Shown here: piece by piece, positions 48,320 to 56,604 of the stretch
How the letters are laid out: every line of letters begins with the position of its first letter
Numbering within the stretch: position 1 is the stretch's first letter
Source of the DNA: Anaerolineae bacterium
GTDB lineage: Bacteria > Chloroflexota > Anaerolineae > B4-G1
NCBI GenBank assembly: GCA_034430655.1
Contig: DAOUEC010000177.1
Coordinates: 1-61,214 of the forward strand
Direction of reading: 5' to 3'
DNA: 61,214 bases
Notes under the pieces: generated by a model
The model's database searches: none
What the model was told of the DNA's origin: nothing
Seen by the model: the letters and a program-made list of their open reading frames with translations, nothing else
Program-made: the position numbers and the translations under genes

Positions 48320-51280
48320 TCACACCAGCAAGGCATCGAGCGCGGCTATGGACTGCTCGCCCATAAAGTCACGCAGGTAAGAAGCATCGTTGGGACATAT
48401 CGCCACACACGAGCCGCACGAATCGCACAGGAAAGGATGGGTCCTGGCTACCTTCTTGAACTCGTCAATGTACCGCGCGCCGTAAGGACAGACGTCCACA
48501 CAGAGGCCACATCCCATGCACAGAGATTCGTACACATCGGCAACGAACATCTTGTTGGGAGGGGGCATCTTCTTCTTGCCGATGACCACCAGCACGCGGC
48601 CAGCCGCGTCCTTCGCGGTCAGGATCGTCTCCTCGAACGAGCGAGGCGAATGAGCCAACCCCACCGGGAAGATGCCGTTACCGGCCAGTTCGAAGGGCTT
48701 GGTCAGTTTCTTGATCGCTTCCTCGAAAGGATAGTTGCTGATGTCGCTGGAAAAGAAGCCCTCGTAGTCCAGCGGATAGTTCAACAACCGCGAGAGGGCC
48801 TGGCTGTTCTCCGCGTCCGGTACGATGCCGGTGCTCAGCGCGACCCAATCCGCCTGAACTCGCTGTTCCCCATTGACAACCTCCAGCCCGTTTCCGTTGC
48901 TCCACACCTCGGGGTAGCGATCGTCGGGGAAGCGAACGAACCGCACCCCCGCCTCCCTGGCGAGCCGGTAGTAATCCACTTTGCCGTAGGTCGCGATGTC
49001 ACGGTGGAAAACGGCGACCTCAGTTCCCTTCTCGCGCAGCGCGATGGCGTTCTTCAGCGCCTGGTTGCAGCAGAGCCGGGAGCAGTACGGGACCCCCGGA
49101 GTCCTTGAGCCCACGCACTGGATCATCGTCACCCGGCTGGCGGTCTCACCGCCGCTCATCTTCGCCTGGAGTTCCGTCTGCGTCATCACCCGTGGATCCT
49201 GGCCGTAGAGAAAGCCCTCTGGCCGGTACTCCTGGGCCCCCGTCGCCACGATGATCACGCCGGTGTCCACCGGGACGTGCCCCGTTGGCGCATCCACCAC
49301 CACGTGGTTGTTGCCCGCGTACCCCTCCGCCTGGGCCAGGTGCGCCTGAGTGTAGCAGGTGATGTTGTCAGCGTTCTCCACGGCGGAGATGAGCCCCTCC
49401 ACGTACTTCCGTTGCTCCTCATCCAGATACTGCATCTGCCCGCCCAGTTTCTCCTCGCGCTCCACCAGCGCGACGGGGAACCCGTTGGCGGCGATCTCGG
49501 CAGCCGCGGTCAGTCCGGCCAGCCCTCCGCCGACGACCAGTGCCCGTGGGATGAACGTGTCCATAGGTGGGCCAGCCTGCATCCCGCGCTTGACCTTCTC
49601 CACCCCGCCCCGGATCAGCGCCAGGGACTTTTCCAGCATCTTATCCCGGTCCGTGTGCACCTGTATGACGTCTTCCCGGAAGCGCAGGTACTCGCACAGG
49701 AGAGGGTTGAGCCCGGCCATCATCACGGCCTTGTTGTACTTGCCCTTCTTCTGCAAGGGCGTGCAGACGGCCAGGACGACCCGGTTGACACCGGACTGCT
49801 TGATGCGCTCGGCCGTCGCCTTGATCGTGGGGCCGGTGCAGCAGCCCTCGATGATCTCGGCGTGAGCGACGCCGGGCAGCGCCCGCACCTGCTCCTCCAG
49901 TGTCGGCAGGTCTATCCGCTCGTCGAACAGGCCGAAGCAACTGCATAAGAACACGCCGACGCGGATAGGCTCACCCTCCACGTCCCGCAGCGGTGGGCCG
50001 GGGGCCGGCTTAAAGTTCTTCTCCCCCAGGTACTTCTGCACCTCGGTCAGAGTCGCGCAGCCTTCCCAGACGGTCTCCGGGTTGCCCTTTGGCCCCGTGA
50101 GTTCCCCGACGGCAAAGATGCCGTCCACATCCGTCTCGCAGCACGAGAAGGGCCGGATGTGACAGAACCCGTTCTCGTCCGCCTGCACGCCGGTCAGCCG
50201 CGACAGTTCGGCCATCTGCGACGGGGGGCTTTGCCCTGTGACCAGGATGGCCAACTCGACGGTGTGCGTGTGCGATTCGCCGTTACTTCGACTATGCTCA
50301 GTACAAGCCGCAGAGGTATAGTGGATGGTCACCTGCTCAGCGCCGTCCTCGGGGACGATCTTGAGCGTTTCCGCCCGCTCTACACGCACACCGGCGTCCA
50401 GGGCTTTCTGGTACCACCGATAGTGCCCCTTTCCCGTCCCCCGATAGTCGTGCAGGAAGACGGCTACATCGGCCTGCGGGAGAATCTCCTTGAGCCGGAC
50501 GGCGCGGTAGATGGCGCTCACGCTCAGGTTATAGTTCTCGTATTCGACGCCCGGCCGGTTGAAGTGGGGCGTGACGACGATGTCGAAGGTCTGCGGGATC
50601 TTGCCGGACGGCAGGCGCACGGAATCGCGCACAAAGTTGGTCAGAAGCGAGCGCCTGGCCACCGCGGAGTTTCGGATCACGCTGGGGCTTTGCCCCAGCG
50701 CGAAATCGCGCAGGTCCTCATCGCTGGGTTCCTCGAACGTATCGGCCAGGATAATCGCCCCCACGTCGGCCTCCAGCACCTCCTCCGGCCGCTCGACCTT
50801 GAGGGCGCCAGTGGGGCATACTTCCTCACACTTACCGCAGCGGATGCAGTGCTCGAAGTCAATCACGTAGCAGTTCTCCCACGCCGCCTCGGGGATGACT
50901 CGGATCGCCTTGTGGCCATCTACCTCGACCGGACAGACCTCGATGCACCGGTCACACTCGGTGCAGGCGAAGTTGTTGACCACCTTGTCTCGCTTCTTGA
51001 ACTTGACGTGGAAATGGCCTGCCTCGCCGGAAACCTCCAGCAGTTCGGCGTTGTAGCAGTCCTGCATCGCGCCGAGGGCCTTGAACAGGCGCTGGGGCAT
51101 GTGCCCGCAGATCCAGCAGAAGTCGAGCGGCAGTTGGGCCAGCGCCTGATACTTCATCTCATCCACGTAGGAGCCACGGTTGAGCAGGATGAACTTGTGA
51201 CCGCTCTTGCCCAGGGCATACGCGGCCCGATAGCCGCCCAGATTGGTCCCATAGATCAACACTGTGCTCTCATTGCTCAT
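48320..51280 (-). CDS. Double-length HdrA-like flavoprotein (degenerate HdrA-like N-half plus complete HdrA-like C-half)
   Basis: 986 aa. The N-half has a dinucleotide-binding start and ferredoxin motifs ('CTECDRCIEVCP', 'CIRCGKCEEVCP'). A mid region, 'VGVFLCSCFGLF', resembles an HdrA N-domain. The C-half has 'VVGGGLAGLTAA', 'QCVGSRT', 'CSRLCCNQA' and terminal 2x[4Fe-4S] motifs. Confidence 0.8.
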   Translation of the reverse strand: MSNESTVLIYGTNLGGYRAAYALGKSGHKFILLNRGSYVDEMKYQALAQLPLDFCWICGHMPQRLFKALGAMQDCYNAELLEVSGEAGHFHVKFKKRDKVVNNFACTECDRCIEVCPVEVDGHKAIRVIPEAAWENCYVIDFEHCIRCGKCEEVCPTGALKVERPEEVLEADVGAIILADTFEEPSDEDLRDFALGQSPSVIRNSAVARRSLLTNFVRDSVRLPSGKIPQTFDIVVTPHFNRPGVEYENYNLSVSAIYRAVRLKEILPQADVAVFLHDYRGTGKGHYRWYQKALDAGVRVERAETLKIVPEDGAEQVTIHYTSAACTEHSRSNGESHTHTVELAILVTGQSPPSQMAELSRLTGVQADENGFCHIRPFSCCETDVDGIFAVGELTGPKGNPETVWEGCATLTEVQKYLGEKNFKPAPGPPLRDVEGEPIRVGVFLCSCFGLFDERIDLPTLEEQVRALPGVAHAEIIEGCCTGPTIKATAERIKQSGVNRVVLAVCTPLQKKGKYNKAVMMAGLNPLLCEYLRFREDVIQVHTDRDKMLEKSLALIRGGVEKVKRGMQAGPPMDTFIPRALVVGGGLAGLTAAAEIAANGFPVALVEREEKLGGQMQYLDEEQRKYVEGLISAVENADNITCYTQAHLAQAEGYAGNNHVVVDAPTGHVPVDTGVIIVATGAQEYRPEGFLYGQDPRVMTQTELQAKMSGGETASRVTMIQCVGSRTPGVPYCSRLCCNQALKNAIALREKGTEVAVFHRDIATYGKVDYYRLAREAGVRFVRFPDDRYPEVWSNGNGLEVVNGEQRVQADWVALSTGIVPDAENSQALSRLLNYPLDYEGFFSSDISNYPFEEAIKKLTKPFELAGNGIFPVGLAHSPRSFEETILTAKDAAGRVLVVIGKKKMPPPNKMFVADVYESLCMGCGLCVDVCPYGARYIDEFKKVARTHPFLCDSCGSCVAICPNDASYLRDFMGEQSIAALDALLV

Positions 51281-55762: not shown

Positions 55763-56604
55763 CGCTCTCCGACTCTCCTCTCCCCAACGCTCATCTCACC
55801 CATCTTGATCAGTTTCAAGCGCGGGATGCGCCGCGTCAGGCACTCGGTCCAGCACAGGCCGCAGCCGGTGCACTTGTCCTCGTCCACGTAGCGGGCCTTC
55901 TTGCGCACCTTGACCTTGAAGTTGCCCACATAGCCCGAAACTTCCTCGACCACACTGTAACTCAGGAGCGTGATGTTGGGATGCCGACCGGCATCCATCA
56001 TCTTGGGGCCCAGAATTCAGGTACTACAGTCGAGGGTGGGGAAAGTCTTGTCCAGTTCGGCCATGTGCCCACCGATGGAGGGCTCCCGCTCGACCAGGTA
56101 GACCGGGTAGCCAGCGTCGGCCATCGTGAGCGCCGCCTGGATGCCGGCGATGCCCCCGCCGACGACGAGTGCCGCTTTGGTGACCGGCTCCACGCGCGGC
56201 TCCAATGCCTCCTGGTAGGCCACCCGATAGACGGCCGAACTGACCAGCCGCTTTGCCTTGGCGGTCGCCAGCCCCATGTCCTTGATGACCCAGGAGCAGT
56301 GCTCGCGGATGTTGGCCATGGCGAAGTAGTAGGGATTGAGGCCGGCCTCGGCGACGGCGGTCTGAAAGGTGGGCTCGTGCATGCGCGGGGTGCAGGAAGC
56401 GACCACCACGCGGGTGAGGCCCAACTCCCGGATGTCGTCCTTGATCATGTTCTGGCCGGGCTCGGAGCACATGTACCTGTACTGGCGGGCGACGGTCACG
56501 TTGGGCAGCCGGCTGGCAAAGGCGACCACTTCGGGCACATTGACCGTGGCGGCGATGTTGATACCGCACTCGCAGATGTACACGCCGATTTTAGGTTGCT
56601 CCAT
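55759..56604 (-). CDS. hdrA: N-terminal third of HdrA as a stand-alone ORF, with in-frame UGA (predicted selenocysteine)
   Basis: ORFs 56017..56727 and 55759..56001 share one frame and are joined by TGA at 56017..56019. The read-through 'FPTLDCST-U-ILGPKMMDAGRHPNITLL' aligns with 'FPTLDCSA-C-ILTPRMFEVGSHPNVTLL' of the Cys paralog. Start ATG 56604 (MEQPKIGVYICECG). Homology ends after 'CTGCGLCWTEC', and the ORF stops at 55759. Confidence 0.8.
55979..55996 (-). promoter_or_regulatory. Candidate SECIS hairpin for the hdrA N-fragment
   Basis: The minus-strand RNA is GGAUGCC-GGUC-GGCAUCC: a 7-bp stem and a GGUC loop. It starts 20 nt after the UGA. Confidence 0.6.

Follow-up and report, generated by a model that had tools for sequence, protein, structure and literature searches.

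To our knowledge just four kinds of electron-bifurcating enzyme are known, and ways of combining such enzymes have newly become visible through the structure of class II benzoyl-CoA reductase. In this enzyme, Bam[(BC)2DEFGHI]2 of Geobacter metallireducens, a HydBC-type module (BamGH and BamI) is combined with the HdrA-type flavoprotein BamE, the MvhD-like selenoprotein BamF and the HdrD-like BamD, and its two bifurcation modules operate in series (bioRxiv 10.64898/2026.04.10.717634). Here we describe an operon of an Anaerolineae bacterium, found in contig DAOUEC010000177.1 (GCA_034430655.1), in which hdrA is divided into two genes around a module of the HydABC (Bfu) type and its C-terminal piece is fused to the BfuA domain of that module. 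The whole stretch of DNA analysed, 61,214 nucleotides in length, is called the window, and the genes of the operon all lie on its minus strand.

The two groups of proteins involved have been described separately. In HdrA, the high-potential electron leaves the flavin adenine dinucleotide (FAD) via the cluster of the thioredoxin-reductase domain towards HdrBC, while the low-potential electron takes the route over Cys/Sec197, the N-terminal cluster and the inserted ferredoxin domain (PMC9012536; PMC13518236; bioRxiv 10.64898/2026.04.10.717634). In the M. maripaludis protein, selenocysteine (Sec) 197 makes a Cys-Sec link from the FAD to the cluster of the N-terminal domain (PMC13518236). The Bfu family was defined by Schut et al. 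2022 (PMC9304861), whose domain definition we used to judge membership, and its solved examples are NiFe-HydABCSL (7T2R) and WorABCSL (9MQX). A BfuA subunit of the 'A1, A2, A4' type passes electrons in the order A4-A2-A1 into BfuBC (PMC12318220).

The two hdrA pieces and the genes between them

As a ruler for the pieces we used the intact HdrA paralog encoded at 19588..21555 of the same window. The N piece (281 residues; 55759..56604) matched residues 2-269 of the paralog with 64% identity (E 6e-127) and residues 1-256 of the solved Methanothermococcus HdrA, 5odc_A, with an E value of 2e-103. It comprises the N-terminal FeS domain and, of the FAD-binding fold, the first half (GGGIAG); the Cys-x-x-Sec pair is also present, as is the first of the CxxCxxCxxxC motifs in the inserted ferredoxin domain, and the protein ends in a conserved tail of 26 residues. 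In the initial annotation this open reading frame (ORF) was described as HdrA residues 1 to about 250 followed by a short unrelated tail. The match was confirmed, but the tail turned out to be conserved in orthologs and the frame to be broken by a TGA codon. The tail follows CTGCGLCWTEC; its pattern, (R/K)RIP(R/Q)LKLIKMG(E/D)MS(V/L)GERRPG(E/D)R, is kept throughout the family, and in the alignment to the paralog it corresponds weakly, with a gap of 5 residues, to HdrA 253-269. Since the tail is conserved and aligned in this way, the HdrA break is placed at about 269|270, within the linker that joins both CxxCxxCxxxC motifs of the inserted ferredoxin domain. Across orthologs, all four Cys of the N piece's half-ferredoxin motif are invariant.

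The remainder of HdrA, which the initial annotation had seen to reappear colinearly at 51277..53088, is indeed carried by the fused protein of 603 residues encoded there, residues 165-599 of which matched paralog residues 241-653 (52% identity, E 1e-153). The C piece itself (residues ~188-603; 51277..52527) also matched the solved HdrA chains 8rvu_a and 5odc_A, with E values from 6e-124 to 1e-113. Its orphan half-ferredoxin motif (C221, C238, C241, C245) was invariant in 22 of 22 proteins, down to ~37% identity, and the cluster motif of the thioredoxin-reductase domain was kept in 21 of the 22.

Ahead of the C piece lies the BfuA, or NuoG-type, domain (residues 1-187; 52528..53088). Residues 2-187 of the fused protein aligned with residues 5-189 of the 247-residue chain 9mqx_A (E 6e-48), so that the NuoG-type domain of about 190 residues recognised earlier at this position was recovered. 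In the tungsten-enzyme complex WorABCSL, chain 9mqx_A is the subunit BfuA (PMC12318220). Pfam profiles Fer2_4 (E 9e-20) and the Fer4_7 / Fer4 dicluster domains were detected, as expected for a BfuA subunit. The putative [2Fe-2S] ligands are C34, C45, C48 and C64, two [4Fe-4S] motifs occupy C125-C135 and C166-C176, and there is no His-ligated cluster; all 12 Cys were invariant in 22 proteins down to ~37% identity. By this pattern the domain is assigned to the 'A1, A2, A4' type.

The features looked for as an HdrA domain set were the N-terminal FeS domain, the FAD thioredoxin-reductase fold with its [4Fe-4S] motif, the inserted 2x[4Fe-4S] ferredoxin domain and a ferredoxin domain at the C terminus. 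The full set was recovered, colinearly and with conserved ligand Cys, by summing both products. The protein is not a single polypeptide, as three genes and the BfuA domain stand between the halves. When both pieces were aligned to solved HdrA, a check proposed with the initial annotation, they made up one HdrA jointly, without loss or overlap. The central claim made for this locus, that hdrA is split around NuoE-, ferredoxin- and NuoF-like genes with its C piece placed behind a NuoG-like domain, was thereby upheld at these coordinates, and the arrangement is conserved in relatives.

Three genes occupy the space between the pieces. BfuC, a NuoE-like [2Fe-2S] subunit (155 residues; 55295..55762), matched PF01257 over 144 of the 145 profile positions (E 3e-50), and its gene is adjacent here and syntenic in all related loci. 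The small thioredoxin-like ferredoxin (123 residues; 54908..55279) gave just a weak match to the same profile, 22.7 bits and hence below the cut-off of 24.8; it shows a Cys pattern C...GCxxxC resembling the N-terminal domain of BfuB, and it is syntenic in related loci though missing from a minimal subfamily (L074). BfuB, the NuoF-like subunit for flavin mononucleotide (FMN) and NAD(H) (599 residues; 53104..54903), contains Complex1_51K (E 5e-38), NADH_4Fe-4S (E 2e-34) and two C-terminal Fer4 domains, with an SLBB match of 22 bits, under the cut-off of 27. Its residues 17-597 aligned with residues 15-595 of 7t2r_B, subunit B of NiFe-HydABCSL (E 4e-233), and it also aligned with HydB of FeFe-HydABC. 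Both alignments span the N-terminal thioredoxin-like and the C-terminal 2x[4Fe-4S] domains, FeS domains that non-bifurcating NuoF proteins do not have (PMC9304861). BfuB is accordingly a NuoF homolog with an extra ferredoxin domain and, since it carries the additional FeS domains of bifurcating HydB, the module is more than an NADH dehydrogenase. Together with the BfuA-type domain, the NuoE- and NuoF-like genes place the module, by its domains, within the published definition of the BfuABC (HydABC-type) family.

The tight packing of the NuoE-, thioredoxin-like-ferredoxin- and NuoF-like genes on one strand between the halves, reported in the initial annotation, agrees with the Pfam assignments and the junctions. 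The stop of the N piece overlaps the start of the NuoE-like gene (ATGA, 55759-55762), the gaps after the NuoE-, ferredoxin- and NuoF-like genes measure 15, 4 and 15 nucleotides, and the stop of the fused gene overlaps the next ATG (ATGA, 51277-51280). The two ATGA overlaps suggest translational coupling. In a promoter and terminator scan of 41000..57200, sites were no commoner than in shuffled sequence, a result with no bearing on co-transcription.

A selenocysteine codon and hairpin in the N piece

The TGA codon in the frame of the N piece (56017..56019) was read as Sec. It corresponds to the Cys197/Sec197 position of methanogen HdrA: in the alignments it stands opposite Cys197 of 5odc_A and the second Cys of the paralog's 'DCSAC'. 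This paralog, intact at 19588..21555, uses a Cys codon (TGC/TGT) here. Among the related loci, almost every split N piece retains the TGA, as do intact paralogs, and a Cys codon replaces it in the second copy of L008 and in L014, L066, L045/46 and L074-76. A SECIS-like (selenocysteine insertion sequence) hairpin, GGAUGCC-GGUC-GGCAUCC (55979..55996), was found by folding. It has a 7-bp stem with a GGUC loop and starts 20 nucleotides downstream of the UGA. In 26 distinct orthologous sequences the hairpin is 100% paired and unchanged even at synonymous sites, in contrast to the variable third positions next to it; one compensatory change, C-G to U-A, occurs in three sequences.

A UGA at a Cys position of homologs and a conserved stem-loop nearby, the marks of a bacterial selenoprotein, are therefore both present. 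From the UGA/Cys alternation and the conserved hairpin we read the N piece as a selenoprotein and the hairpin as a bacterial SECIS element, and the Sec/Cys alternation together with the covarying hairpin argues that the N piece is translated. Rfam at gathering thresholds gave no annotated SECIS family anywhere in the window, and ARAGORN found no tRNA, and hence no tRNA-Sec, within it. ORF callers divide the gene into ORFs of 236 and 80 residues, a miscall due to the UGA, and the fused gene is annotated just as '4Fe-4S binding protein' or 'HdrA'. Both cases may serve as a warning to annotators. Bacterial examples of Sec at the Cys197 position are also of interest in themselves, as the role of this residue remains debated.

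Tandem N-piece copies, one with TGA (Sec) and one with Cys, were observed directly upstream of NuoE in a metagenome-assembled genome (MAG) of Thermoflexales (L008:3509-5215). Methanococci use Sec/Cys isoenzyme pairs when selenium is limited, and the tandem copies recall such pairs.

Relatives, natural fusions and neighbouring genes

Related loci (L numbers) were surveyed by tblastn with the window proteins, and more distant relatives, including fusions, came from an exhaustive search of representatives; the taxonomy given is that of the MAG labels. The fused architecture of ~600 residues was found in more than 120 protein clusters at ≥78% identity and in ~45 species-representative genomes, nearly all of Anaerolineae, Thermoflexales or other Chloroflexota. 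The order N piece, NuoE, ferredoxin, NuoF and fused gene was seen in 32 loci with a full N piece, and 4 more loci end at a contig edge. A search of other genomes for the same five-gene order had been proposed, and the order is in fact kept in at least 32 Chloroflexota species genomes. The same junctions recur in at least 36 independent assemblies from different studies, which speaks against the assembly chimera that the initial annotation had named as a possible refutation. Decay of the N piece in close relatives had been named as another, but the piece is full length in 32 related loci and, judged by its sequences, under purifying selection. Both pieces are 70-94% conserved between species, with invariant ligands.

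With enough upstream sequence, the N piece accompanies the fused gene in every locus except L010, treated below. Two loci at 51% identity (one of them labelled Acidobacteriota) retain both pieces, with the N piece ~4 kb upstream and regulator-type genes in between. This gene order suggests that a whole hydrogenase-type operon, regulators included, may have been inserted into an ancestral hdrA. Read by eye, the five genes between N piece and NuoE in the Acidobacteriota version (L045:426-5134) seem to encode a DRTGG-like protein, a small ATPase, a 439-residue Fer4/HydS-like protein, a PHP protein and a GHKL ATPase. In the minimal subfamily L074-76 (48-50% identity) the break lies at the same point, and the split point is common to subfamilies that are just 43-51% identical.

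In other lineages the parts are joined in one chain. A 423-residue protein of L081 consists of the N piece and NuoE in frame and matches the window proteins end to end with 48% identity. P0138 combines a minimal N piece, a low-complexity linker and BfuA::HdrA-C in a single polypeptide, P0132 is BfuA::HdrA-C::MvhD, and in P0123 BfuA::HdrA-C is followed by a second HdrA. These natural fusions and the invariant ligand Cys indicate that the parts belong together.

A different insertion into HdrA was observed in Anaerolineae relatives (L044, L047-L052, L055, L057, L073, L078 and L079), which encode a Sec-HdrA of ~1150 residues, a protein of the same kind as HdrA9-11 of ANME-1. Its NfnB/GltD-like domain (Fer4_20 + Pyr_redox_2) sits in the inserted ferredoxin domain, as in the 1154-residue protein at L048:1949-5410, and this HdrA is the closest relative of both split pieces, the halves being 75-80% identical. 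Split, NfnB-inserted and intact forms occur side by side in the MAGs JAWLCP (L035/L048/L072) and CAZGSX (L043/L049/L071).

Downstream of the fused gene, on the same strand, the window encodes hydrogenase genes. An HdrL-like protein of 986 residues (48320..51280) consists of two HdrA-like units, according to Pfam and to HdrA matches in the PDB, with an internal segment resembling the N-terminal domain; its start overlaps the stop of the fused gene. It is followed by an MvhD/FlpD-type [2Fe-2S] adaptor (47880..48311; PF02662, E 2e-41), further copies of the same type (~45187..45618; 44545..45018), the NiFe hydrogenase small subunit MvhG (43563..44540; Oxidored_q6), the large subunit MvhA (42100..43566; NiFeSe_Hases) and a maturation protease (41455..42015). 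MvhD comes immediately after the fused gene in most related loci, and the run MvhD-MvhG-MvhA-protease follows it in at least 16, among them both loci at 51% identity. A few loci have MvhD and AsrA/AsrB-like genes behind the fused gene. An extra block (HdrL-like, MvhD, two FrhB-like and a further MvhD) separates the fused gene from MvhD-MvhG-MvhA in the window and its nearest relative. The HdrL-like gene stands directly after the fused gene solely in the window and L001, and distant homologs of it follow the fused gene in L074-76.

On the upstream side, again on the minus strand, lie genes for a conserved protein of 406 residues (56743..57963), a GHKL-type ATPase (57986..58558), a PHP-domain protein (58519..59283) and an HdrD-like protein with two CCG domains and Fer4 (60048..61190), the last three assigned by Pfam. 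A SpoIIE/PP2C-like label for the 406-residue protein was dropped, as it has no Pfam match at E 1e-5. Most loci have the trio of ATPase, PHP and 406-residue genes upstream of the N piece. In the window the HdrD-like gene is 3.4 kb upstream of the module; 10 related loci have one nearby, and in the fetched flanks of most related loci none was found. Neither HdrB nor HdrC is encoded in 41000..57000, so the pairing of both with HdrA that marks an HdrABC complex is missing there, and no AFOR-type gene (BamB) was seen among the ORFs around the operon that were read by eye or scanned with Pfam. In L081 the upstream genes encode acyl-CoA dehydrogenase and EtfBA, and the fused gene is immediately followed by an HdrD-like one. 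P0138, a distant relative and the only one with an AFOR neighbour, adjoins Fer4_11 and AFOR-type genes resembling BamC and BamB.

Elsewhere in the window, a second Hdr-type locus (19119..24325) encodes an MvhD, the intact Cys-HdrA, a protein of 281 residues and two FeS proteins of 345 and 294 residues, which we take from their sequences, without Pfam, as AsrB-like and AsrA-like. Homologs of these 281-, 345- and 294-residue proteins follow MvhD behind the split module in L023, L033 and L038. The gene at 16994..18205 reads by eye like ATP sulfurylase (sat) and may bear on sulfur metabolism. Short heptanucleotide tandem arrays (TTCGCAA / GAATTGC / GAATGGC and others) of 3-10 copies are spread across the window, at 9664..9733, 38218..38248, 38707..38740, 39069..39095, 39621..39659 and 56683..56714. 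Four of them lie inside a hypF-like ORF (37862..40264) whose frame is intact, and another begins the stretch just upstream of the HdrA N piece. Allowing up to one mismatch, 17 occurrences of the 12-mer TTCGCCATTCGC were counted where 0.5 would be expected.

Proposed electron path and comparison with known systems

We lean, with slightly better than even confidence, towards the reading that the operon encodes one soluble Hdr-Bfu complex that would reversibly link H2, NAD(H) and ferredoxin. The N and C pieces would reassemble around one FAD, and their half-motifs (4 + 4 Cys) would together hold both [4Fe-4S] clusters of the inserted ferredoxin domain. The simplest reading is that two chains form this domain between them, since a ferredoxin with two clusters requires both motifs. 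We infer the complementation into one HdrA fold from the colinearity of the sequences and from the natural fusions. The point at which BfuA is grafted, precisely the inserted ferredoxin domain, suggests the wiring: the A4-A2-A1 chain of BfuA would connect HdrA's low-potential arm with BfuBC, whose core houses the FMN, the NAD(H) site and the domain that binds ferredoxin. As in methanogens, MvhD and the MvhAG NiFe hydrogenase would dock on the C-terminal part of HdrA. There would be two flavin sites in series, with HdrA-MvhD linking the Mvh hydrogenase to the Bfu core, and the HdrD-like protein, where present, may take the high-potential branch. The least certain step is the net reaction, which would couple H2/H+ reversibly with NAD(H) and ferredoxin, the overall chemistry of HydABC and NiFe-HydABCSL. 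The initial annotation had seen here an NADH-oxidising module wired directly into HdrA. The fusions of N piece with NuoE, of N piece with BfuA and C piece, and of C piece with MvhD favour the wiring, but the module is a full BfuABC and goes beyond an NADH dehydrogenase.

Several points weigh against this single Hdr-Bfu complex. The fusion point implies that BfuA lies near the inserted ferredoxin domain, which falls short of proving the electron path; the NuoG-like BamI of benzoyl-CoA reductase instead delivers its electrons to BamE at the C-terminal ferredoxin domain (bioRxiv 10.64898/2026.04.10.717634). The BfuBC core alone can already couple H2, NAD and ferredoxin, which leaves the need for the FAD of HdrA unaccounted for. 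H2 does not appear to be a universal partner, since related subfamilies adjoin ETF/acyl-CoA dehydrogenase or AFOR genes and have no Mvh. The conserved cluster motif of the thioredoxin-reductase domain suggests a high-potential partner, and the proposed complex does not need one. An AlphaFold2 model of the fused protein made with 40 close homologs reached a mean pLDDT (predicted local distance difference test) of 51, with residues 121-277 below 50, too low to be informative. Finally, the copy of the module on a 5.2-Mb Anaerolineae scaffold (L010:6501-9961) is decayed or rearranged: its NuoF-like gene has lost the 5' end, and upstream, in place of N piece, NuoE and small ferredoxin, unrelated ABC-transporter and ATPase genes adjoin it.

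The main rival explanation, which we regard as rather unlikely, is a two-stage machine of the benzoyl-CoA-reductase type. BfuBC would confurcate NADH and reduced ferredoxin, and the resulting mid-potential electrons would load the bifurcating FAD of HdrA. From there one electron would pass via the cluster of the thioredoxin-reductase domain and an HdrD-like subunit to a high-potential acceptor such as ETF or a disulfide, and the other to a very-low-potential acceptor. In reverse, high-potential electrons, for example from acyl-CoA dehydrogenase/ETF, could be lifted to H2 or NADH, with Mvh as one of several exchangeable partners. Class II benzoyl-CoA reductase couples serially in this way, with its ETF acceptor behind the HdrD-like BamD (bioRxiv 10.64898/2026.04.10.717634). 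The HdrD-like genes close to the operon of the window and to that of 10 related loci, the acyl-CoA dehydrogenase-EtfBA and HdrD-like genes flanking the module of L081, the BamC- and BamB-like neighbours of P0138, the conserved cluster motif of the high-potential branch and the double HdrA resembling BamE all fit such a machine. However, most Chloroflexota loci have no HdrD-like gene in the fetched flanks and yet have Mvh genes adjacent, the operon of the window offers no candidate for the very-low-potential acceptor, and BfuA is fused at the inserted ferredoxin domain rather than at the port that BamI uses in benzoyl-CoA reductase.

The products could also be functionally separate, the fused protein being an FeS or adaptor scaffold between Mvh and BfuBC without a functional FAD, and the N piece independent or without a role. 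The split does deprive the C piece of the GxGxxG half of the FAD fold, and the N piece is not next to BfuC in the Acidobacteriota loci. We nevertheless consider this improbable, as the N piece co-occurs with the fused gene wherever the upstream sequence suffices (the decayed L010 aside), is fused to BfuC or to BfuA::C in other lineages, keeps its half-ferredoxin motif and tail alongside the complementary orphan motif, and maintains a costly selenocysteine. An artefact or decay, whether an assembly chimera, a frameshift or an hdrA recently wrecked by the insertion of a hydrogenase-type operon, would account for the in-frame stop of the N piece and for L010 with its truncated BfuB and absent N piece. 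Against this, the TGA occupies a known Sec position, is accompanied by a covarying hairpin and is replaced by Cys in orthologs. With junctions found in at least 36 assemblies and more than 120 protein clusters of ~600 residues, pieces conserved at 70-94% with invariant ligands, and a split shared at 43-51% identity, such an origin is highly improbable here. For the family, the conservation of junctions, pieces and ligands excludes the chimera and pseudogene readings.

If the single Hdr-Bfu complex is taken further, the operon may belong to an unrecognised, widespread 'Hdr-Bfu' class of enzymes. In these, the low-potential arm of a bifurcating HdrA FAD would be wired permanently to another bifurcation site of different mechanism, the FMN/FeS site of BfuBC. 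We offer this tentatively, as a possibility. Such an enzyme would be a two-stage redox transformer with exchangeable partners, namely Mvh hydrogenase here and, in relatives, ETF/acyl-CoA dehydrogenase with HdrD, or a tungsten AOR. As a soluble device it could shift electrons between high-potential donors on one side and H2, NADH or ferredoxin on the other, with no membrane involved, and it would bear on reverse electron transport in fermenting and syntrophic anaerobes. Anaerolineae are abundant fermenters in sediments and digesters, and the operon, common among them, is a candidate for how they balance H2, NADH and ferredoxin. It would be the second joining of an HdrA module with a HydBC/Bfu module, this time genetically hard-wired. 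Nature would here also have performed a split-protein experiment on the HdrA fold, in which two chains make up one ferredoxin domain.

The initial annotation did not recognise the arrangement as a described complex. The exact architecture indeed appears to be undescribed, but the coupling of Bfu and HdrA modules is known from class II benzoyl-CoA reductase. Neither a split HdrA nor a BfuA::HdrA fusion turned up in a full-text search of the literature, though a mention in the HdrA-module review of Appel et al. 2021 is possible, and neither PMC9304861 nor its supplement contains a Bfu member with BfuA fused to a part of HdrA. Like other members of the Bfu family, the window encodes a BfuB with FMN/NAD, SLBB and N3-cluster domains, flanked by N-terminal thioredoxin-like and C-terminal 2x[4Fe-4S] domains, a NuoE-like BfuC, and a BfuA with one [2Fe-2S] and two [4Fe-4S] clusters and no His-ligated cluster. 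Fusion of BfuA to an additional redox domain is also seen in 'Type 1' members. However, this partner domain is two thirds of HdrA, the remaining third is a separate selenoprotein encoded upstream of bfuC, and the hydrogenase is of the Mvh type, connected through MvhD/HdrA instead of being a HydSL on BfuA.

Class II benzoyl-CoA reductase shares with the window the combination of a HydBC-type module with an HdrA-type flavoprotein (bioRxiv 10.64898/2026.04.10.717634), and the HdrL-like double HdrA resembles the fused HdrA dimer BamE as the latter is described in print. The Bam subunits, by contrast, are separate and unsplit, whereas the HdrA of the window is split and fused to BfuA at the inserted ferredoxin domain, which in BamE leads to BamBC. 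The operon has no BamB or BamC (tungsten AOR) and is therefore not a Bam enzyme; it has a NiFe hydrogenase attached. With methanogen HdrA the window shares the domains, the cluster motifs, the Cys194-x-x-Cys/Sec197 pair and nearby genes for MvhD, MvhG and MvhA, and with M. maripaludis HdrA it shares Sec at the position of Sec197. It differs from the methanogen systems in that HdrA consists of two polypeptides, that HdrB and HdrC are replaced by nothing closer than the HdrD-like gene at a distance, and that the low-potential arm appears to enter BfuABC instead of a free ferredoxin or polyferredoxin. HdrA9-11 of ANME-1 (Chadwick et al. 2022, PMC9012536) likewise have a pyridine-nucleotide-dependent module grafted into the same HdrA domain. 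There the graft is a single NfnB/GltD-like domain within one polypeptide, while in the window it is a Bfu module of three to four subunits, and the host gene is split.

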